Origin: a virus
DNA: 64,000 nucleotides
Virus genome (UHGV): UHGV-0125199
Reading direction: 5' to 3' (one strand)
The notes beneath the pieces were generated by a model. The model was given only the letters and a program-made list of their open reading frames with translations, did not search any database and was not told the DNA's origin. A program made the translations under genes and the position numbers. This document shows positions 10,162 to 45,102 of the stretch, in pieces. Each line of letters begins with the position of its first letter. Within the stretch, counting starts at the first letter, position 1.

Positions 10162-10231
10162 GCTTGGATAGTTTAATGGAAAACGATTGACTTGTAATCA
10201 ATTGTTCCCAGTTCAAATCTGGGTCTGAGCT
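10162..10231 (+). tRNA. tRNA-Thr (TGT)
   Basis: Acceptor GCTTGGA/TCTGAGC (2 G-U pairs). Anticodon arm ATTGA-CTTGTAA-TCAAT. T-arm CCCAG-TTCAAAT-CTGGG. Confidence 0.65.
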
Positions 10232-29256: not shown

Positions 29257-30471
29257 ATGAGTGAATATGAAGTACGCGTTGACACGAATGTAGACACAAG
29301 TGAACTCGATTCCGCACAGAAAAAATTAGATAGTTTAGTTAAAAATGGAAAACATATTAAAGTTGATTTTGATATTCAGGGAATGAAGAACCTGAATAAG
29401 ATCAATGGTGTCTTAAAAGGAATCGAAAAAAATAATAAGATCAGTGTAAAAGCTGATATGGATACATCCGGAATTAAAAAAGGATTATCTGATATTGAAA
29501 AAGCGAAACGAAGTGTTTCTACTTTAAAGATTGATGCAGATGTTTCAAAAGCGAATGCAGATTTTAAAAAGTTTGAATCTCTTACGACAAAATCCGCGGA
29601 AAAGGCTCGAAAGTTATTATCTGACATCAATAAAGATATTAATAATGTGAAATTGGCTCCAAATGATTCCATTATGGAAATTAATTTTAAAAAACTTACC
29701 AGTGATTTAGAAAAGTACAGGAATCAGATTAAGGTTGTACAAAATGAGCAAAAAGCTCTTGGTAATTCTATTACATCTGTATCAAAATCATTTAGTAAAA
29801 TTGATGCAGTAACTGCCTCTAACAAGACCTTAACGTGGTTAAAAAACAATAGTCGCGCTGCAAAAGTATATGGCGATCAACTAAAAGAAATTGCAGAATC
29901 TCAGAGAAAAGCAACATCAGATTCAGAGCTAACTTCACTAAATAAAGATTTCAACAAAACTGTATCTGAGGCAAAATTACTTGGACTTACTGGTAAAAGT
30001 TTTACAGCGGAATTTAAACGTGCATTTTCTCAAATTGCACAGTTTACGCAAATTTATGGTGGAATTGAAAATGTAATTCAGACTATTCAAAACTCTGTTA
30101 TTGAATTAAAAAATGTTGATTCTATTTTAACAGAAATTTCTAAAACATCTGATATGACAACAGATCAACTTACAAAACTTGGAGAAACATCTTTTGATTC
30201 CGCAAGCAAGTGGGGAAAGAAAGCAAGTGATTACCTACTTGGTATCCAAGAAATGAGTAGATCTGGCTATTATGGCAAACAGGCTGAACAAATGGCTGAA
30301 ACAAGTATTCTTGCTCAGGCAGCCGGTGATTTAAATTCAGATGTTGCAAATAGTTATCTTTTGGCATCGAATGCCGCATATCAATATTCTGGAAATGTTC
30401 AAAAACTTAATGCATTGCTTGATGGACAAAATATGATTAATATAGTGGTCATGCTATATAGAAATATATAG
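29257..30471 (+). CDS. tail tape-measure protein, segment 1 (TP901-type core, N-terminal part)
   Basis: 'DYLLGIQEMSRSGYYGKQAEQMAETSILAQAAGDL…ANSYLLASNAAYQYSGNVQKLNALLDGQNMIN' is tape-measure core-like. The in-frame tail 'VVMLYRNI*' looks like intron read-through. Confidence 0.8.
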   Translation: MSEYEVRVDTNVDTSELDSAQKKLDSLVKNGKHIKVDFDIQGMKNLNKINGVLKGIEKNNKISVKADMDTSGIKKGLSDIEKAKRSVSTLKIDADVSKANADFKKFESLTTKSAEKARKLLSDINKDINNVKLAPNDSIMEINFKKLTSDLEKYRNQIKVVQNEQKALGNSITSVSKSFSKIDAVTASNKTLTWLKNNSRAAKVYGDQLKEIAESQRKATSDSELTSLNKDFNKTVSEAKLLGLTGKSFTAEFKRAFSQIAQFTQIYGGIENVIQTIQNSVIELKNVDSILTEISKTSDMTTDQLTKLGETSFDSASKWGKKASDYLLGIQEMSRSGYYGKQAEQMAETSILAQAAGDLNSDVANSYLLASNAAYQYSGNVQKLNALLDGQNMINIVVMLYRNI

Positions 30472-31639
30472 CTTCATAGTTGGCTTTTATCCCGGAAACT
30501 CCAGAGATGGACAATCGGGAGGATAAGTTAAATAAAATACGGTAGAAAGAGGATATTATAGAAATAAAATTAAAATCATGGCAAACTCTCGCAAACTGTA
30601 AATTTTGTAATAAAGAGTTTGTAACTACTAAATATAAGGTTAATAATAATAAAAATGGTGTTTTTTGTAGTAGAAGTTGTTATGCTGACTACAAAAAAGA
30701 AACGATGACAGGTTCACAAAATATAAATTATAAAGAAAAGGTAAAGGTTCATTGCGATAATTGTGGTAAGGAAATTGAAAAAATACCATCTTTAACACAT
30801 AATATAAACAAACAAGGAGAAAACCATAACTTTTGTTCTTATGAATGTTATTGGGAATTTCGTAAAAAATATTATGTCGGGGATAAATTATATAATACTG
30901 GAAAAAAGATGGACGAAATTTTTTGCAATAAGGTAAGAGAAGCAACATTAAAACAATATCAAGATGGTATACTTGATAGACAAACAATACCACAAAAGAT
31001 AGTTAATAGTATATTAGAAAAAAATAATATTAATTATATCAATGAAAAAACTTTTAAATATTATTCTGTCGATAATTATTTAATAGAACATAATTTAATT
31101 ATTGAAGTTATGGGTGATTATTTTCATGTGAACCCTTTAATTTATACAGATTCAAATGAGATGAATAATATGCAGAAAAAGGATATTGATAGAGACAAAA
31201 GTAAACATACATATATAAAAAAATATCAGGATGTTGAAATTTTATACCTATGGGAATCCGATATAAAAAATAATCCTTTATTATGTGAAGAATTAATAAA
31301 AAAATATATAGAATCAAATGGCAAGTTGGAAGAATATAATTCTTTTAACTTTTCTTTTTGTGATAACAATTTAAAATTAAATAACAATATTATTAAACCG
31401 TATTTTATTTAACCCCCTAACGACTAAGTTGTAATATGGTAACATATTGCACACGCCGACTTCGATAGATATAGTCTATCCGTTACCTATAAGTCCGTAG
31501 GAACGCCTAACGTAAAACGAGGGAAAAGATATAGTCTAGTCTCACGCTATAATCTAAAAATGAAACGTGAGAGGTAGGATTAACGTCCTATCCGCTTTAT
31601 TGTTATTTAACAATAAAGTCCAATGCTTTGTCCTGGAAG
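30447..31639 (+). mobile_element. group I intron in the tape-measure gene (boundaries within about 10 nt)
   Basis: Non-coding flanks around the HE ORF. R-like 'ACGACTAAG' and S-like 'AAGATATAGTCTAG' elements after the ORF. An ATAGT pentamer is shared at both exon edges. Confidence 0.6.
30705..31412 (+). CDS. EDxHD/Vsr-like homing endonuclease with N-terminal zinc ribbons (the frame is open from 30546, so the real start may be upstream and non-canonical)
   Basis: 'EVMGDYFHVNP' carries the E-D-x-H residues, followed by 'DIDRDKSKHTYIKKYQDVEILYLWESDI'. Several CxxC zinc-ribbon pairs ('CDNCGKEI…CSYEC', 'CKFCNK…CSRSC'). Confidence 0.6.
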   Translation: MTGSQNINYKEKVKVHCDNCGKEIEKIPSLTHNINKQGENHNFCSYECYWEFRKKYYVGDKLYNTGKKMDEIFCNKVREATLKQYQDGILDRQTIPQKIVNSILEKNNINYINEKTFKYYSVDNYLIEHNLIIEVMGDYFHVNPLIYTDSNEMNNMQKKDIDRDKSKHTYIKKYQDVEILYLWESDIKNNPLLCEELIKKYIESNGKLEEYNSFNFSFCDNNLKLNNNIIKPYFI

Positions 31640-32393
31640 CATAGTAATAGAACAAACTAACAGGAACAGTGTATCCATGCAGGATATGGCAGAAGCCACA
31701 ACTCAAGCAGCTTCAATGGCATCAGAATTGGGGGTTCAAGAAAATCAACTTTCTGCGATGATTGGAACAATTGAGTCCAGAACAAAAGCAGGTGGCAATG
31801 AGGTTGGTAATGCGATCAAATCATTGTTGATAAACGTTCAGAATGTAAATAACTCAAAAATTGCAGAAACGTTTAAAAAAGCTGGCGTTGCTCAGACAGA
31901 GTTTGTAAACGGTGTAGAAAAAATGCGTAATCCAATTGAAGTATTGGAGGATCTTGCGAAAGTATTTAATCAATTAGAAGAGTCAGATCCACTGCGTACA
32001 GAAATTCTTACAAATATTGGACAGAAATACCAAGCGAACAAACTAAGTGCTTTATTATCTGGATGGTCTGACTATGAAAAAATGCTTGTAGATTATTCTG
32101 AGGGTACAGGAAGTGCTGCAAAAGAAGCAGAAAAATCTGCAAATAACTGGGAAGGATCTCTAAATAAATTATCAAATACTTGGACTGGATTTATTCAGAA
32201 TTTCGCTAATTCCAACATGATTACTTCTGGATTACAAGGACTTACTGGAATAATTAAAATAATCGACACAGTTGTTTCAAAAGCAGGAACACTCGAAACT
32301 GTTATGGGAGTTTTAGGTGGAGGATTAGCGAGTAAAACAGGATGGGGTAAAACTATCGTAGTTTATAATGCCCCTTTCTATAAGGTTGCATAA
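31623..32393 (+). CDS. tail tape-measure protein, segment 2 (continues the core)
   Basis: 'SVSMQDMAEATTQAASMASELGVQENQLSAMIGTIESRTKAGGNEVGNAIKSLL' continues the TP901 tape-measure core. No RBS before the ATG, and an in-frame TAA lies 3 codons upstream. Confidence 0.8.
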   Translation: MLCPGSIVIEQTNRNSVSMQDMAEATTQAASMASELGVQENQLSAMIGTIESRTKAGGNEVGNAIKSLLINVQNVNNSKIAETFKKAGVAQTEFVNGVEKMRNPIEVLEDLAKVFNQLEESDPLRTEILTNIGQKYQANKLSALLSGWSDYEKMLVDYSEGTGSAAKEAEKSANNWEGSLNKLSNTWTGFIQNFANSNMITSGLQGLTGIIKIIDTVVSKAGTLETVMGVLGGGLASKTGWGKTIVVYNAPFYKVA

Positions 32394-32899
32394 TAACGCC
32401 ATGCAATTAACGTAGAGAGTGTTCATATTATATATCGTAGTGTAATATGACCATCCTTGGAAATATAGATTTTCTAAATTGTCGAATATCGGGGGAAGCC
32501 GTAAGCCTATTTATATAGGTACCGGAGCGATGCAATAAAAGCGTATTATTATATAGAAGAAATACGTTCGTGAAGGAATAAGCATTTAATGCGAAAATGG
32601 TAGTCCCGACGCACTATAACTAAAACATGGAAGTGTAGTTCCATATATAGGGCGCGAGAGACTGACAAGACATGACGTGATACAGGCGTAATTGTATCAT
32701 ATGGTACACAACATACAGTCCGTACCTGGGGAAAGCCCAGGGTAGTCAATATGAGATACGGCAGTATACACTACTGCTCTATTGATGCAAACTACACAAC
32801 CTGTTGCTGACTTGCAAAAACAGGACAGGATTATACGGCGTATCTCTCGTCGTTTTCTAATAGAGATAAAAAAATAGACACAAATTGTTTACATTCTAC

Positions 32900-32927
32900 T
32901 TGACTTAATACAAGAAGAATGTATAAT
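32900..32927 (+). promoter_or_regulatory. sigma70-type promoter: TTGACT, 16-nt spacer, TATAAT
   Basis: Exact consensus hexamers. Confidence 0.6.
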
Positions 32928-32970
32928 AATACATGAGTTAAAAAATATAGCTCGAAACACCACGATGTAA

Positions 32971-32998
32971 GGACAGGGGATTACCTCCTGTCCTTTTG
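32971..32998 (+). terminator. rho-independent terminator
   Basis: GGACAGG-ggattacct-CCTGTCC hairpin followed by TTTTGTT. Confidence 0.6.
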
Positions 32999-33140
32999 TT
33001 ATGTTGTGGAAACAAATAAATAGAATAATTTTTTCTTTCCAAAAACACAAGAGATATTTTAAATATAGAGAAAACAACTATATATAGGAAAAATTTATAT
33101 AATTAGTGTGTTTTTTATTTTTCCGCACTATATCTAGCGG

Positions 33141-33169
33141 TTGAACAAATTTAATAAAAAATGTATAAT
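33141..33169 (+). promoter_or_regulatory. sigma70-type promoter: TTGAAC, 17-nt spacer, TG-TATAAT
   Basis: Near-consensus -35 hexamer with an extended -10. Confidence 0.6.
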
Positions 33170-33271
33170 AAGATACACAAAAAATAGTCTAATTTATTTC
33201 TCACGTTATATTTCGACATTTTGTTTAATTTTTTTGATGTATAATTGCTTCAAATACCAAGGGGTGATTAT

Positions 33272-33484
33272 ATGAAGTTAGGTAAAAAAGGATCCATACA
33301 TACAAAAGAGGAGGTAAGACATATGGCAGTCTCAATGGCAGTTGTACCGTTATTAAAAGGGGAAGCGGCTACTAAAATCGTAGATGATTTTAAAAGCAGC
33401 AAATTAAAACCATTTACAGACGATCAACGTAAGAAGACTAATGCTAAAGTAGCTGAGATACTCAAAGGTAAACGTAATGGATAA
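33272..33484 (+). CDS. small basic protein (70 aa), putative antitoxin-like partner of the downstream GNAT gene (the ORF track starts it at 33245)
   Basis: ATG after AAGGGGTGA. Its stop overlaps the GNAT gene start (ATGGATAA). Confidence 0.45.
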   Translation: MKLGKKGSIHTKEEVRHMAVSMAVVPLLKGEAATKIVDDFKSSKLKPFTDDQRKKTNAKVAEILKGKRNG

Positions 33485-34034
33485 CACAGAAAACTTTCAA
33501 TATAAAGAAGAGTTACTAAGCAAAGAGTCATTAAGACATTTTATGTTAGTAGGTGATTTTTGCTGTGGTGCAGACAATCCATTAAATACTTTCTTATCAG
33601 ATGATGCATTTGATTATGCAGAAGAAAAGCAAGGACACACATACATTTTAATGGACAACGAATACACTTGTATACTAGCATTTTACACAATTAAGGCTAA
33701 TGCAATTCATACATTTAATATAGATACAAACGAATATATGGCGTTGCCTGTTGTGGAAATAGCAAGAATTGCTGTAGATTTTGACTTCCAAGGGAATGGT
33801 TTAGGGAAAATATTATTTTATGATTATATAATACCTAAAATAAAAAAAGTAAGTAAGATTATTGCAATATATGGTATCATTGTATTTGTAGAATCGGAAA
33901 ATGGTCAAGGAATACAATTTTATAATTCACTAGGATTTAAAAGAGCCAATAATGAAATACAAAAAGCAGTTGGTGATTCTTATAACGAAAAATGTGAATT
34001 GTATGTGCTGAAATTAGATGATATAAAAGAGTAG
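33477..34034 (+). CDS. GNAT-family N-acetyltransferase (possible AtaT/TacT-like toxin)
   Basis: Acetyl-CoA motif A 'FQGNGLGKILF'. About 185 aa. Translationally coupled to the small upstream ORF. Confidence 0.65.
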   Translation: MDNTENFQYKEELLSKESLRHFMLVGDFCCGADNPLNTFLSDDAFDYAEEKQGHTYILMDNEYTCILAFYTIKANAIHTFNIDTNEYMALPVVEIARIAVDFDFQGNGLGKILFYDYIIPKIKKVSKIIAIYGIIVFVESENGQGIQFYNSLGFKRANNEIQKAVGDSYNEKCELYVLKLDDIKE

Positions 34035-34056
34035 GGAGTAATCCTACTCTTTTATT
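34029..34056 (+). terminator. rho-independent terminator
   Basis: GAGTAGG-gagtaat-CCTACTC hairpin followed by TTTTATTAT. Confidence 0.6.
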
Positions 34057-34159
34057 ATATTGGCTGATGTTTTTATTTTATAGAAACATATGTTCAGACT
34101 ACTCTTCTATTCATTATTGGTATATAATGGAAATACTAAAGATGAATAGGAGTAATATA

Positions 34160-34969
34160 ATGCCGAAATTTAAAGCCAGTTCTGTTATTTCGATGCTGAA
34201 ACGGTTTACAGATGAAGAAAAAAATAAAAAAACTCAGTCTTGTCCGGAATTGAAGAATGAGATTAAAAATGTATTAGACGATACAAAGATCATTCTATAT
34301 AAACAATCCAGAGAGGACGCGATTAAATATATTTTATGGCAAGGATTATTGAATAGATATGGGATTTTTGGGAGCAACAGAAGACAACACCGCTTATTTG
34401 GTCAAGATAAAACAGATTATTATGCTCAAGAGTACCAACATGGAGATATTGTAAGTATAGACTTCGGAACATCGAATATTGGAAGCGAATTTTCGTTTAC
34501 TCATACCGCACTTGTTTTGCATGAATTTACTGATTTTTTAATTGTTATACCTATTACTACTGCTAAAGATGGTAGATTAGAGAATAAGCCATTGGATGAA
34601 CAGGAATCAACATTTGTAATACATAAAAGTGATTTTTCGTTTATAGAAGCTGATTCATATGTATTAATATACCAGATAAAATCTATTTCAAAAAATAGAA
34701 TCACGAAAAGAATTGGGAATATAACAGGGTCAAAGTTTTTGTGTGACGTTGATAGCGAAGTGTTTAACATACTATTAGATCCGCTTTCAAAAAAAATATC
34801 AGAAGAAATAACAAACCTAAATATAAAGATATCAGATTATAAAAATATGATTGAAGAAAAAGATGAAAAAATAAGAGAATTAAATTGCTTGGTGGAAAAT
34901 TTAAAACAAAATATTAAAAATAATGATAAAAATGTGTTGACAAATCTGGATTTCCATGATACCATATAG
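34160..34969 (+). CDS. MazF/PemK-like domain protein with a C-terminal coiled coil (the ORF track starts it at 34067)
   Basis: ATG after AGGAGT. 'HGDIVSIDFGTSNIGSEFSFTHTALVLHEFTDFLIVIPITTAKDG' matches the PemK/MazF 'GDIv.vdf…G.E…RPalVl…V.PiTs' pattern. Confidence 0.45.
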   Translation: MPKFKASSVISMLKRFTDEEKNKKTQSCPELKNEIKNVLDDTKIILYKQSREDAIKYILWQGLLNRYGIFGSNRRQHRLFGQDKTDYYAQEYQHGDIVSIDFGTSNIGSEFSFTHTALVLHEFTDFLIVIPITTAKDGRLENKPLDEQESTFVIHKSDFSFIEADSYVLIYQIKSISKNRITKRIGNITGSKFLCDVDSEVFNILLDPLSKKISEEITNLNIKISDYKNMIEEKDEKIRELNCLVENLKQNIKNNDKNVLTNLDFHDTI

Positions 34970-35010
34970 GCATAAAAGATAGATATTTTTAGCAATGGCT
35001 ATTAAATATA

Positions 35011-35050
35011 ACTACATGGAGAGGTCTTTACGAATAAACGTAAAGACCTT
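35011..35050 (+). terminator. rho-independent terminator
   Basis: GGTCTTTACG-aataaa-CGTAAAGACC (10 bp) followed by TTCTTACTATTT. Confidence 0.55.
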
Positions 35051-35074
35051 CTTACTATTTAAAAATATATTTAC

Positions 35075-35108
35075 GTTTTAATTAAAAAAGACTGGGTTAT
35101 CATACCTA
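35075..35108. terminator. bidirectional terminator (it serves the minus-strand gene 35201..35638)
   Basis: AGACTGGG..CCTAGTCT hairpin flanked by A-runs and T-runs on both strands. Confidence 0.55.
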
Positions 35109-35200
35109 GTCTTTTCTCATGTATATTTTTAAATTCCAACTACTCTCCTCCCCACTAAAAATAGCTCTTACAGTTATTACGCTTCCACTGTTTACCGATA

Positions 35201-35638
35201 TTATTTTGGTATATTATTGATAATTGCACTAATGTATTCCGGATCATTTATTATTGCATTAAAAATTGTACTGGCGAGTGACATAATTCCATGAATAGAC
35301 GCAACCCCCATTTTCTTCGCAGATTTTTTCGTTGCATTCCATATTGTCTCTGGTCTAACCGTATTTATAAAATTATGACCGCTCCATGAAATGTCATCAA
35401 CATGACCTGATAATTTTCTGTCTTTCCCATTATAATTTTTATATCCAGTAATATAGCCAGCGCTCATTAATTGTGTCAGTGTATATGCAACATCTTCTTC
35501 GGAATATTTATTGTCTTGTGATAGTTCATTTATTATCGTTTTAAAAGAAATACCTTTTATAGAAAAATATTCACACATCACAAGATTATCCTCTAAATAT
35601 ATTAATGTGTCTCTTACACATTCAGGATTTAGTTTCAT
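35201..35638 (-). CDS. hypothetical protein (145 aa)
   Basis: Minus-strand ORF with an ATG after GGAGGTATAAC (reverse complement). Confidence 0.55.
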   Translation of the reverse strand: MKLNPECVRDTLIYLEDNLVMCEYFSIKGISFKTIINELSQDNKYSEEDVAYTLTQLMSAGYITGYKNYNGKDRKLSGHVDDISWSGHNFINTVRPETIWNATKKSAKKMGVASIHGIMSLASTIFNAIINDPEYISAIINNIPK

Positions 35639-35668
35639 AAGTTATACCTCCAAGAAAGGAATGATTAA

Positions 35669-35890
35669 ATGAAAGATATTACTATTCATTATAAAACAGA
35701 TGATGAAATGACAAATAAAGATAATCCTCTTTATGATCTACGCAGCCGAATAGCGGTTCTAGTCGATGGAAAACCAATTGAAAGATTAAAAAGGTTCTCA
35801 ATTGATTTTGATGTTAACGACATAGAACCAACTTATTGTGTGGAGCAATATATGGATTTTCCCAATAACGATCAAGACTATACGATATAA
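35669..35890 (+). CDS. small hypothetical protein (73 aa)
   Basis: ATG after AAGAAAGGAATGATTAA. Confidence 0.35.
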   Translation: MKDITIHYKTDDEMTNKDNPLYDLRSRIAVLVDGKPIERLKRFSIDFDVNDIEPTYCVEQYMDFPNNDQDYTI

Positions 35891-35906
35891 GTCTATCACT
35901 CTCCTC

Positions 35907-36386
35907 TCACGGTTTCCATGTATGACCACAGTTAGAACATCTATTGACTGTTTTATTACTTCCTAAGAATCCAGTCAGGATTGAGTAGCCTTTTTGCCCG
36001 GCGGTAATTGATGTAGATCCACATTTCGGACAACGTGGTTTAGATTCCTCTGCTTTCTTACGTTCTTCCTCTGCTTCTTTGGCTTGAACTTGTGACCGGA
36101 ATTGCGACATTTTTAATTCATATTCTATGATATCGTCATCGTGTAATTTTATCATTGCATCGTAGAAATCTGTGGAATCTGAGATTTTTGACAGAATAAT
36201 AAAATCATCATCCGGCATTGATGTCATGATTATTGGATGACCATATGGGCATTCTGTAGCAGTGTCTTCATAGAAATACACATAACCATTTCTATAAATT
36301 CCATCTTGTATTTTTTCTTTTTTGCATGTTGGACATATTTTTAAATGATTAACCATATTTATCCCCCTATATATTTTTAATTGCAA
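35907..36386 (-). CDS. zinc-ribbon protein (159 aa)
   Basis: Two CxxC…CxxC ribbons ('CPTCKKEK…CPYGH', 'CPKCGS…CSNCGH'). RBS GGGGGAT precedes the ATG (reverse complement). Confidence 0.55.
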   Translation of the reverse strand: MQLKIYRGINMVNHLKICPTCKKEKIQDGIYRNGYVYFYEDTATECPYGHPIIMTSMPDDDFIILSKISDSTDFYDAMIKLHDDDIIEYELKMSQFRSQVQAKEAEEERKKAEESKPRCPKCGSTSITAGQKGYSILTGFLGSNKTVNRCSNCGHTWKP

Positions 36387-36510
36387 GTTATTTATATATA
36401 GTTTATCAGAACAATAGACGATTGTAAACTACGACTCTGATGCGGATAAATTCACATCTATTTTTGACAATTTTAAAAAGAAAACAAAACCTAAATTTAA
36501 TCAAGATACA

Positions 36511-39500
36511 TTGGATTTTGCAAAAGAATTCAATAAGCTGGGTAAGAATTCAAATATTGATAATATAGTTTCTCAATTTAAAGAGGTGGATTCTAGTGTT
36601 GTTGATATGGCAAAGTCTGTAAAAGATGGTTCTATGTCAATGGATGAGTTCATTGAAAAATCTACAAAAGCTACAACTACCTCTTCTAAATTCAGTAGAA
36701 TGGCAAAAACTGCTGGTACCGCACTGAAGTCAATTGGTGCTACTGCTCTGAATATGTTTGGTGGTTTTCTTATTGCTGAGGGGCTTAGTCTTGCAATAAA
36801 AGGAATTTATAATCTTATAAACGCAGACAAGATTGCAATTGAAAATGGGGAAAAGGCTCAACAGGAAATTAAGGAAGTATTTGATACTTACAACGGAAAA
36901 GTCGATACGATTAAAACGCTAGGAAAGAAATTTGCCCAAGATGCAGATTCAATCAAGACCACAGGTGATGCCGTAGAATCACTAACTAAAAAATATGCAG
37001 AACTTAGAAAAGGTGTCAGTTCAGATAATACAAATCTTACTCTTTCTGAAAAGGAATACCAGGACTATCTTGACATAAGCAATCAATTAGCTGAATCATT
37101 CCCATCACTTGTATCTGGTAGTGATGCAGCCGGAAATTCTATTTTAAATTTAGGTGACAATGCGTCTGTTGCCGCTGACAAAATGGAAAAACTGCAAAAA
37201 ACACAAATGACGTTGGCTCATAATGATATTGTTGATAAATCAAGAGATACATTTAGGGGTGCATTTGAAAAAGCAGACAATATTGAAGATGAGATAAAAT
37301 CATTAAAAGGTCAAGAAAAACAATTAAAAGAATCTGCTTCTCAAATATCTTTAAGCCGAGATGAAATCAGAGAACAGCTTAAAAGTGGACATCTTATCTT
37401 CAAGGATATGTCTAAAACCGACGCAGACAAGATGGAAAAGGCACTTGGAGCATATGTCGGGAAAGAATTGGGTCGTGTCAGACGGTCTGACGTATCTTTG
37501 GATGGTCACACTATTGACAGAATCGAATTTACAATTGATCCTGTAGTAGATGAGAACAAACTTAATGAAGCAACTGATATGATTGAGGCTAGAGTTTTAG
37601 CTGGAGAAGATGAGATTGCAGCTAAAAAAGGTGAAATACAATCCAATATTAAAGCACAAGAACAAAAGCAAAAAGAAGTCTGGAATAGTTTTGCTGAAAG
37701 CACAGTAAAACCTTATCTTGAAACATCTGCTGCTATTTCTGATATGCCTGTTGAATTACTTAATGCAGTAGAAAGTAATTTACAGAATTTAGATTGGAAA
37801 AAACTTTATAAAGAATACGGCGGAGATGCCGATCAGATGCTTTTGGATGAATTAGTTTCGCCGCTAAACAGTCTAGAAAAACCGGCACAAGAAGCTTTGA
37901 CAAAGGCTCTTAGTTTAGACCCATCAACAATGTCTATTGCTGAATATAATAAAGCTATTGACTCTGCTTTGAAGGAAGTTTCTGATAACAAAGCAACCAG
38001 AAAAGAATGGAAAAATAGATTCTTTAAATCTGCTATCGATTCTGCAACTGAAGATGCTAATGCATTAAAAGAGCAGTTTAAAGGCATAGATAAAGAGATC
38101 GACAACTTAAGCGGAGAAGACAGGGAGTTAGCATACCAAATTGCTATTGAGGATGAGGATTTCGACGGAACTTGGCAAGATGTAATGGACAAGATTAAGA
38201 CCATGAAAGAAGAAGCCGAAAATCCGATGACATTCAATCTTGGTACATTTACATCAGAAGTTGGAGATGCGATTGCTTTAATTGATACATTAAATGCTGC
38301 TCTTGCAAATAGTTATTCTGGAAAAGGATTAAGCGTATCTTATGAAGTAGACGAAGAAACTGGTGTTGTACAGTTAACTGGAGACATCGCAAATCTTCAA
38401 GCAGCTTATTCAGATTTAGAAGGATATGATCCATCTATTCTATTCGAAAGAACAGCAAATGGTGTACATATTAACAGAGAAGCTCTTAGACAATTACAGG
38501 CTCAAGAAGAAGCTTTGAACAAGTCTAAATGGCTCGAAGACGAAAAGAATCTTACAGATCAATTAGCAGTGGCTACCAACAAATTAGCAAATGCAAAGAA
38601 TTCTGGAAGTGAATCTGATGTTGCGTCCGCACAAGCAACCGTGGATTCATTACAACAACAGTTGGAGCAAGTTCAATTGTTGTCAGCTGCATATGACGGA
38701 GCCACTTCTGCATATCAGCAATGGATAAATGTACAATCATCTGGTGAAGATGGAGATATGTATAGAAACGTCTCTGAAACTATGAAAACAAGGGGCGATG
38801 CGTTATACAAAGAAGGTCGATATAATACAGAAGAATTTCGTGCAATTGCCGACTACTTCTCCAATGAAGATTTGTCTACTGCACCAATGGAAAAACTTGT
38901 TGCTGCTTATGAAAATGCTGCTAATGCAAGAGAAAGATACTTTACCGGGAATAAACAGGGTATTGATAATTTCATGGCTGATATGCAAAATGATGCAGAA
39001 TTAATGTCAAAAGGGATTGTCAAAACACTTGAAGACGGAACTATGGAATTCCAAACTGGTTCAGATAAAATATTGGCTGATAAATTCCATCTTAGCGAAG
39101 AAGCAATTCAATCTATTTTAAGAGCTGCATCAGAATATGATGATGGTATAAAAATAGGTAAAATTGACGGTTCAGAAGACTTTAATGCATCTATTGATGA
39201 AATGAAATCAAAAGCTGACGAAGCAAAAGGCAAACTTGAAGAATTAAAGAATGCTGGAAATCAGAGTCTGGATTTAGATTTTAATTTCGATAGTACAGAC
39301 TTAGAAGATTTAGATAGTCAGATTGAACGTGCAAAATCTAATCTTGATCAATTCAAAAATTCAGATGGTCAGATTGATTTAAATGTCGAAGGCGCTCAAG
39401 AAGCTGTTACAATTTTACAAACCCTTATTCAGCAAAAGATTATGGTGAGCCAGCCGGCAATTATGACAATTGACACGACTGGACTTGATGAAGCTACTGC

Positions 39501-42330
39501 TGATACGGTTTCTAAGTTGCAAGAATTTCAAGAGCAATTAAACACTGTTAATTCATTAGAGATGCAACAAGATTTTGGAATTCAAGTAGACACTAACCAA
39601 CTTGACGCTGCGAAGGCTAAGGCTCAAGAATTATTCTCAGAATTGCAAGGAAAATCAGAAGATGGTTCACTTGAAATTACACCAGATGTAAAAGTTGATA
39701 CAGGATCAATGGAGTCATTGGAGCAAAGTTTGTCTTCTATGACGCCTGAAATAAAAGCAAAAATTGTTCCAGATGGAAATGTATCTGATACTCTGGTTAC
39801 TGGTGATATTAAGGTTGAAGACCAGACTGCAAAGGTAGATTATGTAAGAGGAAGCCAAGAAGCTCCTGCTGACAGAACTGCTTCTGTTGATTATATTAAA
39901 AAGGGCACAACACAAATTGAACCTGCCGACAAGAGTGCTGCTGTAACTTATAGTAAGATTGGCGGAGAACAAGCACCTCCATCGGACAAGAACGCAAATG
40001 TTAATTATAAAAAAGGGGAACAAGAAGCACCGAGTAAGAAAAATGCAGTTGTCGATTATAAACGTGGATCACAAGAATTGCCTGATTCACCTAAAAGTGC
40101 AACTGTTAATTATACTCTTGGAAATGTTGCTACTCCACCAGACGCTTATGTAAAAGTACACTATGATACATCCGGAAAACCAAAAGGTAGTAGTCCAGCC
40201 AATGGTACTGCTCATTCACAAGGAAGTGCCAACTCTGGTCATGCATTTTCTAGTGGATCGTGGGGATTAAAACAACCTGAAAAGGGCGCTCTGATAAATG
40301 AATTAGGTGCAGAAATTATTGTCAGAAATGGACAGTGGTTTGTAGAAAATAATGGATATCCTACTATCACTAATCTCAAAAAGAATGATATCGTGTTCAA
40401 TCATGAACAATCCAAAGCTTTGTTAGAACGAGGATATGTTACTGGATCTCATGCTAAATTAGCATATGAAGGCAATTCTCATGCAAAAGGAACTGCATTT
40501 TCTGGGGGGTCTTGGACTTTTGGGAATACAGGTGGTGGAAACATTGGAGGCACCAACACTACTTCCAACAATCTCAACTCCGCATCAAATAATCTTGCCA
40601 AAGCTGCTTCTGATACTTCCAAAGCAGCATCTGATACATCCGAAGCTGCCGAGAAATTATCAGAAGCAGTATCCGGATACACGGACTGGGTTGAGGTGTT
40701 ATTCAAACGCTTAGAATCACAGTATGATTTGCTGATGAGTCAAATGGAGCGTATCGCACATCTCCCAGACAAGCAACAGAAACTGTATGAGGCAATGTCT
40801 AAGAACAGTGAACTACTGAATAGGACTCAGCAAGCAATTGGGACTTATCAAAGTCATTTTGATTCTATTGTACAACAGAGTGGAATAAACCCACTTATCG
40901 TACATCAGATTCAGAACGGGTCTATGGATATTTCAAAATACGACCAGGATACTCAAAAAATAATCAGTGAGTTGCAGTCTTATTATGATAAGCTCGTAGA
41001 CTGCAATAAACAGTACGATGACCTCTTAAATAAACAGAGTGAACTGGCGCAGACAGCATTGGATAATATTGAAGATTACATCGATATGATGACTGGAATT
41101 GAGTCCTCTGCTGTAGATTATCAGGAAGCATTACGTGAATTAGCAGCTGCAAAAGGAGAATCTGCATATTCCGATAATATGTATGGCTCTCTGCAAGAAT
41201 CTATTAAAAATCAACAGGACGTTGCAGGTAAATTACAGTCACAGATTAAATCATATCAAGATGAAATCAATAAACTCATGGCAAATGGGTATATGGCTGA
41301 ATACTCAACGGAATGGTTTGAAGCACAAGCTGCATTAAATGGATTCCGGCAAGAAGCTGCTGAAGCTGAGAAAACACTGATTGAATTACAAGATCAGTTA
41401 AGAGAACTTGATTTACTGAAACTGCAACAGGTTATTGATGAGTTAGACAGAACTGCAAAACGACTGGAAAACAATTCTGACCTTACAGAATCAAAAGGTG
41501 AACAGGTATCTGAAAAAGATTTACAGGCACAGCTTGACAATGCAAATGCACAGATTCAGGCAAATTACGATAAGCGGAATGAACTATTAAAGGATCAGGC
41601 AAAATATGATGTCGGTTCTGACAAATATAATGAAATTGCGGAAGAGATAGAAAAGCTCGATGACGCTATCTTTGATGCAATGGAGAACATTGAAGACCTC
41701 AAAAATAAAATCTGGGAAGTAAGATGGCAACCGTTCTTTGATGGACAGGAAGCATTAGGTGATCTGATTGACCAGACAGATGATTTAAGAGGACTTTTAA
41801 ATAGTGATGCTTTTCTTGATAAGAACGGCGGTTTAACTGTAGATGGTATTGCAAATTTGTCTTTGATTAGTCAGGGTATGAATGCTGCGAAACAGCAAAT
41901 CAAGAATTATCAAGAGGCATTGAAGAAGCTTGATGAGGATTTAAAGAACGGGAATATCTCAACAAGTGAATATAAGGAGCAGCAAAAAGAATTTCTCAAT
42001 CAGATTTCAAGCTCTGTTGGCGTTGTTGAAGACTACAAAGATTCTATTGTTGATCTCTATACAAAGATGCTTGAGCAAGAGAATGAAGTTGCTCAAAAAT
42101 CGATTGATAAGCAGAAGGAATTGTTGGATATCAAAAAGAAAAATGCTGATTACAATAAGACTCTGCGTAAACAGGCTAGAGATGTGAATACATTGAAAGC
42201 TCAGATTTCAGCACTCGAAGGCGTGAAGTTATTTGCGCGACTTCTATTTAATAGCGGGAAAGTCCCCACAACCCTATCTTGCTACAACGGAACTGGAAAC
42301 GGTAAACGTGAATGCGGTACGAGTTTATAA
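36511..42330 (+). CDS. tail tape-measure protein, segment 3 (frame open from 36418; the functional end is probably near 42208, with intron read-through after that)
   Basis: 1939-aa helical/coiled-coil protein with TM-like 'ALNMFGGFLIAEGLSLAIKG'. No RBS before the TTG at 36511. The terminal 'VKLFARLLFNSGKVPTTLSCYNGTGNGKRECGTSL' looks non-coding. Confidence 0.8.
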   Translation: MDFAKEFNKLGKNSNIDNIVSQFKEVDSSVVDMAKSVKDGSMSMDEFIEKSTKATTTSSKFSRMAKTAGTALKSIGATALNMFGGFLIAEGLSLAIKGIYNLINADKIAIENGEKAQQEIKEVFDTYNGKVDTIKTLGKKFAQDADSIKTTGDAVESLTKKYAELRKGVSSDNTNLTLSEKEYQDYLDISNQLAESFPSLVSGSDAAGNSILNLGDNASVAADKMEKLQKTQMTLAHNDIVDKSRDTFRGAFEKADNIEDEIKSLKGQEKQLKESASQISLSRDEIREQLKSGHLIFKDMSKTDADKMEKALGAYVGKELGRVRRSDVSLDGHTIDRIEFTIDPVVDENKLNEATDMIEARVLAGEDEIAAKKGEIQSNIKAQEQKQKEVWNSFAESTVKPYLETSAAISDMPVELLNAVESNLQNLDWKKLYKEYGGDADQMLLDELVSPLNSLEKPAQEALTKALSLDPSTMSIAEYNKAIDSALKEVSDNKATRKEWKNRFFKSAIDSATEDANALKEQFKGIDKEIDNLSGEDRELAYQIAIEDEDFDGTWQDVMDKIKTMKEEAENPMTFNLGTFTSEVGDAIALIDTLNAALANSYSGKGLSVSYEVDEETGVVQLTGDIANLQAAYSDLEGYDPSILFERTANGVHINREALRQLQAQEEALNKSKWLEDEKNLTDQLAVATNKLANAKNSGSESDVASAQATVDSLQQQLEQVQLLSAAYDGATSAYQQWINVQSSGEDGDMYRNVSETMKTRGDALYKEGRYNTEEFRAIADYFSNEDLSTAPMEKLVAAYENAANARERYFTGNKQGIDNFMADMQNDAELMSKGIVKTLEDGTMEFQTGSDKILADKFHLSEEAIQSILRAASEYDDGIKIGKIDGSEDFNASIDEMKSKADEAKGKLEELKNAGNQSLDLDFNFDSTDLEDLDSQIERAKSNLDQFKNSDGQIDLNVEGAQEAVTILQTLIQQKIMVSQPAIMTIDTTGLDEATADTVSKLQEFQEQLNTVNSLEMQQDFGIQVDTNQLDAAKAKAQELFSELQGKSEDGSLEITPDVKVDTGSMESLEQSLSSMTPEIKAKIVPDGNVSDTLVTGDIKVEDQTAKVDYVRGSQEAPADRTASVDYIKKGTTQIEPADKSAAVTYSKIGGEQAPPSDKNANVNYKKGEQEAPSKKNAVVDYKRGSQELPDSPKSATVNYTLGNVATPPDAYVKVHYDTSGKPKGSSPANGTAHSQGSANSGHAFSSGSWGLKQPEKGALINELGAEIIVRNGQWFVENNGYPTITNLKKNDIVFNHEQSKALLERGYVTGSHAKLAYEGNSHAKGTAFSGGSWTFGNTGGGNIGGTNTTSNNLNSASNNLAKAASDTSKAASDTSEAAEKLSEAVSGYTDWVEVLFKRLESQYDLLMSQMERIAHLPDKQQKLYEAMSKNSELLNRTQQAIGTYQSHFDSIVQQSGINPLIVHQIQNGSMDISKYDQDTQKIISELQSYYDKLVDCNKQYDDLLNKQSELAQTALDNIEDYIDMMTGIESSAVDYQEALRELAAAKGESAYSDNMYGSLQESIKNQQDVAGKLQSQIKSYQDEINKLMANGYMAEYSTEWFEAQAALNGFRQEAAEAEKTLIELQDQLRELDLLKLQQVIDELDRTAKRLENNSDLTESKGEQVSEKDLQAQLDNANAQIQANYDKRNELLKDQAKYDVGSDKYNEIAEEIEKLDDAIFDAMENIEDLKNKIWEVRWQPFFDGQEALGDLIDQTDDLRGLLNSDAFLDKNGGLTVDGIANLSLISQGMNAAKQQIKNYQEALKKLDEDLKNGNISTSEYKEQQKEFLNQISSSVGVVEDYKDSIVDLYTKMLEQENEVAQKSIDKQKELLDIKKKNADYNKTLRKQARDVNTLKAQISALEGVKLFARLLFNSGKVPTTLSCYNGTGNGKRECGTSL

Positions 42331-43702
42331 CTCAACAGTCTTCGGATAGAAACCATAAAAAACAGATAGGTCAGGGATAACCGGGTGTGCAAGTCACCCA
42401 GACGCAACGAACTTCCTAAGTCATATATGATTTATGATATGGAAGACGCTCAACGACTGGTAAGTCCTATATATTATAATATGTAGGCATAGGGTTACAA
42501 GCGATTGGTAACTCGAAAAATATAGACTATTTGAATAAGAAATGAAATGAACAATTAAATATGATATATGTTATAATTAAGATACATCTATGATGCACTT
42601 ATGAATACAAGAACGTATGTTTTGTATATATTTAACAATTGTAAACATATCACTTTGTTTGTATTTTGTGTAGAATTTTCTCCGTATATGGGATATAATA
42701 ATAACAAGAAAACAGCAGTGTTTTCTTAAATATATCTGGTGTGATGCAGCGTAATATGACTGCTATAAATAATCTTTGAAGTGTACGCCGGGTTAGGAAC
42801 CGGTTTACATGGAGATTTACAAAGGTGCGAGGATTTACCATAGCCTAACTAGGAACTATGTTCTGAAAGAAAGTCCTTGAATGAATAGAAGGGTCATCAC
42901 CAGTGACTCTTCTATTTTTATACCAAGGAGAAGTTATGGATAATATATCATTGGCACTAAATAATTTCAAAGAATTGATGAATTGCAATTATGATTTTAT
43001 AATAGTTTGTAATAAGCAAAAATCAGATATAAAACTTACATTTGAATCAAAAGATTTTTATCATTTAGTAGGGTTTCAATACTTAAAAGATATAGACATC
43101 CCTAAAAATGAAAAACAGTTATTTAAAAAAATAGAATCTCTTAAGATTACTGATGAGTATTTAGGCAAAAGTGTGTTTTATACAAAAGTGGATTACAGCT
43201 ATGCAAATGTAAAAGAACGAATTTCCGGATTTAAAGATGTTGATAAATTTATAGAAAACAAAAATATTATATGTAGATATATAAAAACTAATAACCCTTC
43301 ATCGGCTATAAAAGCGGATTATTTAATAAAAAGTACTTTATATAACAGAACGGCATATATGTTTTTGAGAAAAAGAAGCAAAGGAGATGAATATTGTATG
43401 TGTTCATTTTTTATGCAACCACAAAATGAATATATAGGTCAAAAAACATATTGGTTGTATAAAGCCAAAAAACGTATATCGGACAATTATGTTAAAATAT
43501 TGTTAGATAGAATATCGGAATCCACAGAGCAGTAACAGGTAATACTACTGCTCTTTTATTATGTCCAAAATCATTTCAAAAAAAATTCCAAATTATTCAA
43601 ATAGAAGGTATAGTCTCAACTTCTGAGGATAACTCAGAGAAGTTCATAAGAGAACTGCATAGCGTAGCGAACTATGTGAAGATAATTGAAATAATGCGAG
43701 TG
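42209..43702 (+). mobile_element. third intervening sequence in the tape-measure gene (intron-like; boundaries within about 25 nt)
   Basis: The coiled-coil reading frame resumes at 43690 with no start or RBS. GCTCAG is shared at both exon edges. Structured RNA-like flanks. An internal hairpin plus T6 at 42884..42918. Internal ORF. Confidence 0.5.
42936..43535 (+). CDS. intron-encoded protein of unknown family (candidate novel homing endonuclease or defence protein)
   Basis: ATG after AAGGAGAAGTT. No LAGLIDADG, GIY-YIG, HNH or EDxHD motif recognised. Confidence 0.55.
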   Translation: MDNISLALNNFKELMNCNYDFIIVCNKQKSDIKLTFESKDFYHLVGFQYLKDIDIPKNEKQLFKKIESLKITDEYLGKSVFYTKVDYSYANVKERISGFKDVDKFIENKNIICRYIKTNNPSSAIKADYLIKSTLYNRTAYMFLRKRSKGDEYCMCSFFMQPQNEYIGQKTYWLYKAKKRISDNYVKILLDRISESTEQ

Positions 43703-43755
43703 CTCAGGCTGAATTAAAGAGGTTAAAAGCACAACTCAGAGATACAGAAGAAGAA

Positions 43756-45102
43756 ATGCAAGACACCCGTGATGACCATGAATATGATGTGCGTCAGAAT
43801 GGTCTGGACGGTTTGAGTGAGGATCTCGATAAGCAGCTGGAGGAAACATTATACGATGTTACTCATAATGCTGAAAAGCAGGAACAAGTAATATCTGGAA
43901 TGTTAAACCGCGTTGTTGGAAACTACCAACAGGCTTATGACAAAATTCAGCAAATCATCAACAGTACAGGATTTGTACCGAATAAGGATTTATCCAATAA
44001 TCTTGGAAATCTTGGTACAAGTAATGGAGCGCAGAACCAGGTAGACAACAGTATGACTACTGCTCCTAATTATAGACCGGATGATTGGACGGATGTGAAT
44101 ACCGGTCAGATTCAGAACGGAACAACACAGGATAAGAATGACCAGATTCAAGGCGATATCAGCAAGAATCCAGACTTATCCAACAGACCTGTTGCAGAAA
44201 TTGTATTAAGTCCGGGGACGCTTTCTATACAGGAAGGTTCCACAGGTACAGTTTCAGCAACAATCAGACCAAATGATGCAAAAAATAAGAGTTTGCAGTG
44301 GGTGTCATCAAATCCAGATGTTGCTACGGTTGCAAATGGAACTGTTCATGCTGTCAAAGCAGGTAGTGCTACTATTAGTGCAATTGCAACAGATGGTGGA
44401 GGTGCTACTTCAACAAATAGTTGTGCAGTAACTGTCACACCAAAACCAGAACCGCCAAAACCAACTACACCACCACCGAGTAATAATGGTGGAGGAGACG
44501 GAGTACCGAATGTTGGAGACAAAGTAATATTCGCAAGTGGAGATTACTACTACTCTTCTGACGGTCAGTCCCCTGCTGGAAATGAAATGCGTGGTCAGGA
44601 AGTATATATTACCAGTGTTAATAATGCTAATTGGGCACAGAAGAAATATCATATTAGTAGAACACCTCGTTTCGGAGAGCGTGACCTTGGTTGGGTAAGT
44701 CTTGACCAGTTAAGAGGTTATGCGTCTGGAACAAAGAAATTTGTAAATGGTTCAGAAATTGTTCGCATCAATGAAGGAAATAATCCTGAAATGATGGTTA
44801 GGCGTGGTGCATTGACAGGAACAGCTACGACAATTACTTATGGTGATGCTGTTGTAAATGCAAGACTGTCAAAGAACATTATGGATCTTGGTGAACACAA
44901 AGATGATATTTATAGTTCATTGAACATTGCCAACAGCCTTGGTGAAAGACCTAATGTAACAAATAATTACTATGACAAGATGATAGAAGTTCAAGGAAGT
45001 ATTGACAAGGAAACTTATCCAGGCATGAAGAAAGTAATTGAAGGAGTTACAAAGGAATTTACCAAAGAGGCAAAAAGAGCTGGTGTACACAGATCATTTT
45101 AA
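43756..45102 (+). CDS. tail tape-measure protein, segment 4 (frame open from 43690): coiled coil, a Big_2 Ig-like domain, and a C-terminal domain
   Basis: 'ASAQAELKRLKAQLRDTEEEM…' continues the coiled coil of segment 3. 'LSPGTLSIQEGSTGTVSATIRPNDAKNKSLQWVSSNPDVATVANGTVHAVKAGSATISA' is Big_2-like. Confidence 0.55.
   Translation: MQDTRDDHEYDVRQNGLDGLSEDLDKQLEETLYDVTHNAEKQEQVISGMLNRVVGNYQQAYDKIQQIINSTGFVPNKDLSNNLGNLGTSNGAQNQVDNSMTTAPNYRPDDWTDVNTGQIQNGTTQDKNDQIQGDISKNPDLSNRPVAEIVLSPGTLSIQEGSTGTVSATIRPNDAKNKSLQWVSSNPDVATVANGTVHAVKAGSATISAIATDGGGATSTNSCAVTVTPKPEPPKPTTPPPSNNGGGDGVPNVGDKVIFASGDYYYSSDGQSPAGNEMRGQEVYITSVNNANWAQKKYHISRTPRFGERDLGWVSLDQLRGYASGTKKFVNGSEIVRINEGNNPEMMVRRGALTGTATTITYGDAVVNARLSKNIMDLGEHKDDIYSSLNIANSLGERPNVTNNYYDKMIEVQGSIDKETYPGMKKVIEGVTKEFTKEAKRAGVHRSF

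Follow-up and report, generated by a model that had tools for sequence, protein, structure and literature searches.

The 64,000-nucleotide stretch of the viral genome UHGV-0125199 analysed here (hereafter the window) holds, between positions 29257 and 45102, four collinear plus-strand open reading frame (ORF) segments separated by three inserts. An earlier note on this DNA had taken the segments for pieces of a single spliced gene encoding a TP901-type tape-measure protein, and our ORF map agrees with its positions. Segment 1 spans 29257-30471 and segment 2 spans 31623-32393, with an in-frame stop (TAA 31614-31616) two codons ahead of the ATG at 31623; segment 3 is open from 36418, its first canonical start being TTG 36511, and the frame of segment 4 opens at 43690, ahead of a first ATG at 43756. 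None of the starts of segments 2, 3 and 4 is preceded by a ribosome-binding site. The tape-measure core is cut at insert 1, as segment 2 matches only positions 85-197 of the 201 positions of the Pfam family PhageMin_Tail (PF10145, E 4e-14). Within the inserts, the ORF-bearing parts are AT-richer and the edges more GC-rich. The genes upstream match the SPbeta YomU/V/W/X and YonB families, and the carrier appears to be an SPbeta-like phage common in gut metagenomes.

The continuity of the gene is evident from its homologues. Joined end to end, the segments gave a 3,034-aa test protein that was searched against 5.8 billion proteins. More than 270 matches were obtained, nearly all of them single proteins of 2,000-4,000 aa that carry PF10145, and some are named tape-measure proteins by their sources. 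Comparison with intron-less homologues had been put forward in the earlier note as a check, and it came out in favour of one gene: of the 120 homologues listed, 99 have a single BLASTP alignment that crosses junction 1, 48 have one across junction 2 and 44 have one across junction 3. At junction 1 the homologues read LDGQNMI-TNRNSVSM and the window reads the same, without a gap in the local alignment. At junction 2 (a slash marks the junction) the homologues have NGLGILNYDSQ and the window TGWG/IVNYDSD, gap-free against the homologues P0006 and P0002, and at junction 3 the homologue P0001 reads ALEGVNNASAQAELK uninterrupted where the window reads ALEGV/NNASAQAELK. Past the end of similarity, each segment runs on for 10-35 non-homologous codons, which for segments 1 and 3 correspond to the tails remarked on in the earlier note and have no counterpart in the homologues: NIVVMLYRNI after exon 1, (K)TIVVYNAPFYKVA after exon 2 (ending …YNAPFYKVA) and KLFARLL...GTSL after exon 3 (ending …RECGTSL), each closed by a stop. 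The ORF ends given in the earlier note are therefore close, but the exon borders differ slightly from them and lie at 29257-30438, 31656-32348, 36421-42224 and 43689-45102.

Ligation of these exons gives an open frame of 3,030 codons with zero internal stops, all four exons being intact across 9.1 kb, and the predicted whole protein has a mass of ~330 kDa. It has the features of a TP901-type tape-measure protein, that is, a PF10145 core, very great length, a largely helical body and a place among tail genes. The exons are under purifying selection, as changes against relatives are synonymous and the frame is kept at 30-40% divergence. Homology begins 30 codons ahead of TTG 36511 in exon 3 and 22 codons ahead of ATG 43756 in exon 4. 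Since mainly third codon positions differ from relatives in 36421-36510, and since TTG 36511 is TTA in relatives and thus not conserved as a start, exon 3 would not be capable of independent translation. The collinearity of the four segments is far beyond chance, and on comparison with homologues they are confirmed as pieces of one tape-measure gene. Two relatives (L006 and L007) do not have the parts of exon 3 at window positions 37925-38797 and 37592-39440, respectively, and the gene call in L006 breaks right after its deletion; tape-measure length varies within the lineage, and tail length presumably does too.

We read the region as one ~3,030-codon tape-measure gene interrupted by three group I introns, a reading to which the sequence evidence leads us to assign a probability of roughly 0.8. 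The proposal of an RNA-spliced, group I-type tape-measure gene of about 3,000 codons agrees with the outcome of all computational tests, and its exons would be joined by splicing. In manual models, the three introns have P7/P7' pairs GACUA/UAGUC, GACUG/CAGUC and GACUG/UAGUC, and P4/P4' and S-like AAGAUAUAGUC elements are also present. In all three, the U at the end of the 5' exon pairs with a G of the guide in P1, and P10 is contiguous with P1 (12 bp in intron 2, 7 bp in intron 3, 4 or 3 bp in intron 1). The expected terminal G is present in introns 2 (G36420) and 3 (G43688). Other kinds of intervening sequence were rejected: group II introns because there is no Rfam group II match, no reverse-transcriptase ORF and no fit at the ends, and inteins because in-frame stops lie 10-35 codons past each exon and stops occur in all frames of the inserts.

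Relatives of the window supply much of the comparative evidence. Some carry a further intron, I4, at a site corresponding to window position ~40980 (L026 4196-5660, L019 4513-5662), and others carry an intron, I5, at window site 32152/32153 (L029/L030 4449-6339). The window is uninterrupted at both sites and represents the intron-less allele for each. On Rfam Intron_gpI, the I4 copy in L019, which is homologous to intron 3, reaches 55.1 bits against a gathering score of 50, and I5 reaches 26.3 bits (E 9e-5); the homologue-exact junction of I5 places G, not U, before its 5' splice site. At least five intron sites thus occur in this tape-measure gene across the population. Intron mobility is also evident from relative L051, in which the I4 site is occupied by a copy of intron 3 that is 80% identical, has the same cargo and has its guide re-tuned (GCCAC, UUUUAU) to the new exons.

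Intron 3 is the best documented of the three in terms of covariation. Its guide pairs with GCGU/AAAUAAU through 11 uninterrupted bp (shuffle p~0.004), with U42224 opposite G42235, and the R-like (CAACGACUG) and S-like (AAGGUAUAGUC) elements flank the P8 stem and form P7. Without its ORF, the intron RNA folds 3.8 standard deviations better than shuffles (z-score -3.8). When the variants of intron 3 are aligned with I4, all 18 of 18 pairs of two helices form, eight of them with compensatory changes; none of 500 shuffles equalled this result, and slid controls were 31-44% paired. RNAalifold on intron 3, the L051 copy and I4 recovers P7, P8 and P9, with compensatory changes in 19 of 64 pairs, and one P8 pair in this family occurs as U-A, C-G and A-U. 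For P3 in the 5' half there are competing candidates, 42245-42249 by analogy with I4 and 42270-42276 with one compensatory change in L051. In relative L004 a fused 2,375-aa product including the Big_2 domain has exactly the length expected without 42225-43688, namely (42224-36511+1 + 45099-43689+1)/3.

Intron 2 is laid out differently along its length: conservation covers the first 545 nt, gives way to variation over the following ~3 kb, and returns in the last ~500 nt, which comprise a minus-strand zinc-ribbon gene and its leader. The conserved 5' block folds 4.3 standard deviations better than shuffles (z-score -4.3). Its guide at 32358-32374 (GUAGUUUAUAAUGCCCC) forms 17 contiguous bp with the ligated exons GGGGU32348/A36421UUGUAAACUAC, 5 bp of P1 with GGGGU32348 and 12 bp of P10 with A36421-C36432, and U32348 pairs with G32370 (shuffle p~1.5e-4). 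Position 36421 is the best 3' position within about 90 nt and is preceded by G. The ACG at 36418-36420 is invariant in 11 diverse relatives, the base before it being G or T; G36417 was rejected as the intron end because it is T in many relatives; G36420, by contrast, shows no variation and agrees with the guide. Where the guide differs in relatives, pairing is preserved (G.U to G-C, U-A to U.G, G-C to G.U and U.G to C.A). The exchange at the splice site itself (32348/32370), from U.G to the still wobble-shaped C.A, is seen in L004, L029, L030 and L034, and it may be a single event, since these relatives have other changes in common as well. Two further changes, 32397 C>U and 32440 G>A, are found together in five relatives, one of which is L007, in other respects similar to the window. 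They fall in the loops of separate predicted hairpins, P2 and P2.1, and could reflect a tertiary contact or chance.

Intron 1 has, in its manually read core, a canonical guanosine-binding pair in P7, and its guide forms 11 contiguous bp with the ligated exons (shuffle p~0.009). P1 contains the U.G pairs U30437-G30448 and U30438-G30447. An S-like element at 31466-31480 was considered as P7' and rejected, since this stretch makes up P8; P7' proper lies at 31532-31536. The 3' splice site at 31655/31656 is favoured by the homologues, the 11-bp guide and a 13-nt tail past the last hairpin. For compensatory changes in its helices, this intron offers almost no variation. Rfam gives 9.7 bits, in the 3' half only, and in a distant blastn search the ORF-less intron matched a Vibrio phage over 37 nt of the S element and nothing else. 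Compared with relative L031, intron 1 and its ORF diverge by 2-4% and the flanking exons by 30-40%, and near-identical tracts of 23 nt upstream and 47 nt downstream flank the intron; this pattern is a footprint of recent homing with co-conversion. The coordinates of all these elements, and the predicted spliced junctions, are collected in Table 1.

Table 1. Predicted exons, intron elements, spliced junctions and intron cargo at the tape-measure locus (window positions; a slash within a sequence marks a junction).
Feature	Position	Strand	Remarks
Exon 1	29257-30438	+	394 codons; ends ...CAA AAU AUG AUU
Exon 2	31656-32348	+	231 codons; remainder of PhageMin_Tail core; ends ...GGA UGG GGU
Exon 3	36421-42224	+	5,804 nt; coiled-coil body; ends ...GAA GGC GU; exons 3+4 = 2,405 codons
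Exon 4	43689-45102	+	470 codons + stop; coiled-coil end, Big_2 domain, C-terminal domain
Predicted spliced junction 1 (nt)			CAAAATATGATT/ACTAACAGGAAC; alternative ...ATGAT/CATAGTAATAG
Predicted spliced junction 2 (nt)			GGATGGGGT/ATTGTAAACTAC
Predicted spliced junction 3 (nt)			CTCGAAGGCGT/AAATAATGCGAG
Predicted junction peptides			GQNMITNR (alternative GQNMIIVIEQTNR); TGWGIVNYDSDADK; AQISALEGVNNASAQAELK
Predicted peptide contexts			…GQNMITNRN…, …TGWGIVNYD…, …ALEGVNNAS…
Intron 1	30439-31655	+	Group I, IA-like, P1-P9 core; manual reading of sequence
Intron 1 guide	30443-30453		
Intron 1 P1	30433-30439 with 30446-30452		Two U.G pairs
Intron 1 P2	30453-30472		GAAA loop
Intron 1 P3	30478-30484 with 31455-31461		
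Intron 1 P4	30491-30495 with 30515-30519		CCCGG with UCGGG
Intron 1 P5	30500-30503 with 30508-30511		Short
Intron 1 P6	30527-30542 with 31398-31413		Perfect 16 bp around ORF; complement checked by eye
Intron 1 ORF	30546-31412	+	In P6 loop; up to 288 aa; two zf-FCS zinc fingers + unclassified C-terminal domain
Intron 1 P7	31422-31426 with 31532-31536		Consensus S element precedes
Intron 1 P7.1	31432-31449		
Intron 1 P8	31464-31480		
Intron 1 P9	31540-31546 with 31566-31572		
Intron 1 P9.1	31573-31592		
Intron 1 P9.2	31595-31618		
Intron 1 last hairpin	31623-31642		
Intron 2	32349-36420	+	Group I, 4,072 nt; ends G36420
Intron 2 ribozyme core	32349-32893	+	First ~545 nt; conserved in all relatives
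Intron 2 P2 and P2.1 hairpins	Within 32349-32893		Manual reading
Intron 2 P3			Tentative
Intron 2 P4	32489-32494 with 32604-32609		
Intron 2 P5	32498-32502 with 32597-32601		Extended
Intron 2 P6	About 32610-32655		
Intron 2 P7	32658,32660-32664 with 32716-32721		Bulged A (G-A-GACUG with CAGUC-C)
Intron 2 P8	32679-32684 with 32693-32698		
Intron 2 P9	32725-32741		GAAAG loop
Intron 2 cargo island	32894-36356	Both	Strain-variable, ~3.5 kb
Promoter + terminator unit	32900-32995		In intron 2
Promoter TTGACT-16-TATAAT	32900-32927		Strong; 11/12 sigma-70-type match
Terminator hairpin	32969-32995		10-11 bp, GC-rich, ~40 nt after promoter
79-aa ORF + overlapping GNAT acetyltransferase gene	33245-34034		Toxin-antitoxin-like layout
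MazF/PemK-like ORF	34160-34969		Own terminator 35021-35050
DUF2513 gene	35201-35638	-	
73-aa ORF	35669-35890		
Zinc-ribbon ORF	35907-36356	-	
Intron 3	42225-43688	+	Group I, 1,464 nt; terminal G43688
Intron 3 guide	42228-42238		P1 4 bp + P10 7 bp
Intron 3 P7	42455-42459 with 43611-43615		
Intron 3 P7.1	42466-42487		
Intron 3 hairpin	42494-42498 with 42508-42512		
Intron 3 P8	42527-42538 with 43593-43604		Exact 12-bp complement; encloses cargo
Intron 3 cargo	42539-43592	+	In P8 loop
Promoter-like site	42548-42577		In intron 3 cargo
Drum RNA (RF02958)	42771-42881		66.3 bits against gathering score 43; model positions 1-112 of 112
Terminator hairpin	42883-42917		15 bp, then U run
PBECR4 nuclease ORF	42936-43535		199 aa, AAGGAG ahead; Pfam E 1.4e-20
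Intron 3 P9, P9.1, P9.2	43619-43676		

In the proposed mechanism, a late transcript would span the whole 15.8-kb locus. SPbeta late genes form one operon transcribed by the processive YonO polymerase (PMC5467207); if transcription in this phage is of the same kind, the pre-mRNA would extend across the internal terminators. Each intron would fold as a ribozyme core, and a guide near the intron 5' end would form P1 with the end of the upstream exon, U.G marking the cut, and P10 with the beginning of the exon downstream. Two standard transesterifications would then remove the intron and ligate the exons in frame, and the 3,030-codon message would be translated. Intron 1 would be a mobile intron of the classical kind, its P6 loop occupied by a nuclease-like ORF. 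In introns 2 and 3, ribozyme loops or a 3' extension would house exchangeable cassettes, expressed from promoters of their own and equipped with their own terminators. Computation shows the continuity of the gene, the precise junctions of introns 2 and 3, RNA helices that are conserved and covary, the mobility of the introns and the swapping of cargo, while splicing itself, terminator read-through and the role of the cargo are inferred.

Several observations weigh against three spliced group I introns. A direct Rfam search of the three inserts, as envisaged in the earlier note, did not give the expected support: Intron_gpI is significant on none of the window introns, whether the whole window, a 13.7-kb region or single pieces are searched. 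The misses of introns 1 and 3 can be attributed to their large ORF or cargo insertions, but that of intron 2 is not so explained. The core assignments of introns 1 and 2 are manual, and the support from covariation comes from few lineages. A strong terminator follows the drum RNA inside intron 3. In intron 2, no significant stem links the core to the distant 3' splice site (a 10-bp pairing of 32808-32817 with 36381-36390, tried as a closing stem, was rejected because 85 of 300 shuffles reach it). Plus-strand terminator-like hairpins (32969-32995, 35021-35050) and antisense genes also lie within intron 2, and efficient cis splicing across 4 kb would not be assured. In intron 1, nucleotide 31655 is A, so that the expected terminal G is absent at the homologue-exact junction. 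This departure from the terminal-G rule was invisible to the earlier reading. An alternative intron, 30438-31639, would follow U30437 and end at G31639, in frame, with a 3-bp P10 (against 4 bp at 31655/31656) and a product of 3,035 codons; G31639 is the only in-frame G alternative with any P10, but its use would insert the five residues IVIEQ into a conserved motif. With G31650 or G31644 as the end, each U-ending 5' exon yields a stop or a frameshift, and both were rejected. The 3' splice site of intron 1 thus appears uncertain between A31655 and G31639.

The chief rival reading bears on intron 2 alone and is a mixed arrangement, in which introns 1 and 3 splice while insert 2 is not removed in cis, so that exons 1+2 and exons 3+4 give two polypeptides or are joined by trans-splicing via the 12-bp P10. 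The two plus-strand terminator-like hairpins, several internal promoters and two antisense genes in insert 2 would suit such an arrangement, as would the confinement of the whole core to the first 545 nt, the missing closing stem, and cargo that reaches ~6 kb in relative L008; the P10 is unusually long, which would favour capture of a distant or separate RNA. Two separate polypeptides are difficult to reconcile with an exon 3 that has neither a conserved start nor a ribosome-binding site and yet shows coding constraint from 36421, and the guide pairing and its compensatory variants would then have no reason to be kept. There is also little need for trans-splicing if transcription is of the YonO single-operon type, which makes read-through plausible (PMC5467207), and no plus-strand promoter is evident just upstream of 36421. 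Overall, we regard the mixed arrangement as improbable.

Considerably less probable still is a split gene without any splicing, in which mobile nuclease genes or islands have been inserted and the segments are translated separately and assemble non-covalently, after the model of T4-type genes split by free-standing homing endonuclease genes. The ATG codons at 31623 and 43756 in segments 2 and 4, the separate proteins given by gene callers in all relatives, and the intron 1 3' end without a canonical G at the expected site would agree with it. However, these starts have no ribosome-binding sites and fall inside or after homologous sequence, a Pfam domain is cut mid-way, and the inserts hold conserved covarying helices and guides that match both exon ends. 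Least probable of all is a decaying gene in a defective prophage, disabled by insertions and yielding no functional tape measure: the contigs of 200-380 kb, perhaps from integrated prophages in some cases, and the damaged look of the intron 1 3' splice site point that way, but the four exons are intact over 9.1 kb and under purifying selection, and the arrangement recurs in hundreds of samples and on viral contigs of 111-166 kb.

On the reading of one gene with three group I introns, the inserts differ in what they carry. The intron 1 ORF is presumed to encode a homing endonuclease. It matches zf-FCS at 40 bits (E 3.5e-10) and, weakly, an HNH endonuclease family of PHROG (E 2e-4); a PDB sequence search gave no match, Pfam gave none for the C-terminal half, and a single-sequence AlphaFold model was unusable (pLDDT 38). 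By impression only, it contains a Vsr/PD-(D/E)XK-like motif (EVMGDYFH). The N-terminal zinc finger is encoded ahead of the first ATG at 30705, in a frame open from 30546. The stretch 30546-30705 has no canonical start, only AGAGGA at 30550-30555 followed by ATT/ATA codons, which suggests a start that is non-canonical or deliberately weak.

Intron 2 has no recognisable homing endonuclease, and PADLOC returned a defence-system match for none of the cargo proteins. Its cargo is exchanged among relatives, which carry instead Trypsin_2, Peptidase_S24-like or IS200-type Y1_Tnp genes or a 486-aa ORF, and it amounts to ~6 kb in L008. The unit at 32900-32995, at the edge of the conserved core, would yield a ~60-nt transcript, and L004 and L008 have extra insertions at the same edge. 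For the minus-strand zinc-ribbon gene, the promoter-like site TTTACA-17-TAAACT (36428-36400) extends over the 3' splice site as well as the opening codons of exon 3, so that the stretch 36400-36428 may serve three purposes.

In intron 3, the cassette inside P8 combines a drum RNA with a gene of the PBECR4 family, which is annotated as an RNase-type nuclease. Here, too, the cargo is exchanged. In L015 the two P8 strands enclose a PemK toxin gene instead of this cassette (L015 2310-3036). The I4 intron of L019 has a different cassette (4758-5565), in which a terminator and an ORF come after an upstream region with 75% similarity to its counterpart in the drum cassette. The drum element itself also occurs in L019 and L026, in addition to the ~80%-identical intron and cargo copy in L051. 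The P8-loop cassettes share a layout of promoter, structured RNA or leader, strong terminator, ribosome-binding site and nuclease- or toxin-family ORF, and they are exchanged among introns and sites. The cargo of introns 2 and 3, toxin-like genes and the orphan drum RNA rather than a recognisable homing nuclease, is unusual.

These observations lead us to a tentative proposal, one that we consider rather doubtful as a whole: the group I introns of this lineage might be carriers for exchangeable accessory cassettes whose cargo would serve phage competition or host takeover rather than homing, the drum RNA might be a regulator, antidote or guide of the adjacent nuclease, and intron 2 might be spliced over 4-6 kb or in trans with its 12-bp P10. 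If so, a cassette in the ribozyme loop of an essential late gene would be hard to lose and would ride along with intron homing. Independently of this proposal, the locus shows that ribozyme loops can accommodate strain-variable islands of several genes, complete with promoters, terminators and antisense genes. The orphan drum RNA gains a testable setting, as mobile-intron cargo upstream of PBECR4 that is interchangeable with a MazF-type toxin. Intron 2 provides a natural test of splice-site distance in group I introns and of a long P10 as compensation, and intron 1, with no terminal G, is either a puzzle of splice-site choice or a crippled intron tolerated by an abundant phage. For annotation the locus serves as a warning, since four apparent genes here are one.

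The carrier is widespread. The window has the same sequence as ENA contig ERZ27293597 k109_7468. In the assembly collection, 164 blocks index the segment 1 protein, and 389-649 blocks index neighbouring tail genes. In IMG/VR, viral contigs related to the window measure 111-166 kb; some contigs with the element reach 200-380 kb, so that integrated prophages may be among the copies. A megablast search of GenBank phages with the locus gave no match, IMG/VR pattern scans found no intron-less junction 1 or 3, and a scan of GTDB genomes with the junction 3 peptide found no relatives.

Elsewhere in the window, a full-length ROOL RNA (340.9 bits, 1231-1828) is directly followed by two tRNA genes (1926-1997 and 2279-2351), and there are more tRNAs at 9055-9126 and 10162-10231. 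The SPbeta late operon transcribed by YonO has an unannotated non-coding RNA at its start (PMC5467207). A LAGLIDADG endonuclease ORF (11566-12285) is located between ORFs 10273-11313 and 12546-14096, neither of which has a Pfam match, and 10273-14096 may be another intron-split gene.

The introns of T4 td, nrdB and nrdD and of Twort orf142 are 0.25-1 kb long and carry one homing endonuclease gene or none; the td ORF lies in the P6 loop, that of nrdD 3' of the core, and Twort orf142 has three introns in one gene. The introns described here share with them a subgroup IA architecture, an ORF in a peripheral loop and an in-frame stop soon past the 5' splice site. We know of no T4 or Twort intron with multi-gene, two-strand cargo and, to our knowledge, ribozyme loops holding multi-gene, strain-variable islands have not been described for phage introns. 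The mitochondrial nad5 gene of hexacorals contains a giant group I intron that encloses many other genes, and as in that intron, a loop or extension here holds several unrelated genes that would be independently expressed. In contrast to the organellar case with its fixed housekeeping genes, the cargo here is accessory, strain-variable and borne by a virus. The drum-PBECR4 cassette resembles type III toxin-antitoxin systems (ToxIN-like) in its promoter, structured RNA, intrinsic terminator and ribonuclease-family gene. This is a resemblance only, and the drum RNA is present in a single copy, not as a tandem-repeat antitoxin array.

The original description of the drum motif notes a terminator after it and a strong association with a protein gene next to it, states no function and argues against a role in self-splicing (PMC5737381). 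The copy in intron 3 agrees with that description in its full-length match, the terminator after it and the adjoining protein gene, but differs in being cargo in the P8 loop of a group I intron, immediately upstream of a PBECR4 gene. With regard to the host gene, the earlier note's claim that tape-measure introns are rarely reported, and that three in one gene would be exceptional, was overstated, as such introns are already documented (PMC2504315, PMC10448857). In Bacillus cereus-group prophages, group I introns named TMP-IVS1/2/3 were described in 2008 at three tape-measure sites, with site-switching by P1/P10 change and exchange of ORFs (PMC2504315). The introns of the present lineage are similar to them in being IA-type, in occupying several sites of a prophage tape-measure gene with presence/absence polymorphism, in the occurrence of related introns with re-tuned P1/P10 at different sites, and in the different ORFs of homologous introns. 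In contrast to the TMP-IVS introns, of which at most two have been described in a single gene and most are ORF-less, the gene in the window has three. Sites in the population number at least five, one intron here measures 4 kb, and some of the cargo genes are not recognisable as homing endonucleases. The tape-measure intron of phage ICP1, with HNH homing endonucleases as cargo, was shown to splice in vivo by RNA-seq and reverse-transcription PCR (PMC10448857). As in ICP1, a nuclease gene lies in a tape-measure intron and the ORF content varies within constant surroundings; unlike in ICP1, where splicing has been demonstrated, it is predicted here from the nucleotide sequence, and the cargo includes toxin-antitoxin-like genes and a structured RNA. 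A limited literature search, which is weak evidence, found no report of phage group I introns with multi-gene, two-strand, strain-variable islands or with cassettes of structured RNA and toxin. The locus thus extends a known pattern, group I introns in a tape-measure gene, to an abundant group of uncultured gut phages. The earlier note had stressed the presence of three introns and had missed the non-homing cargo; neither the host gene nor the multiplicity is exceptional, and the novelty appears to lie in the cargo and the 4-kb intron rather than in the number of introns.

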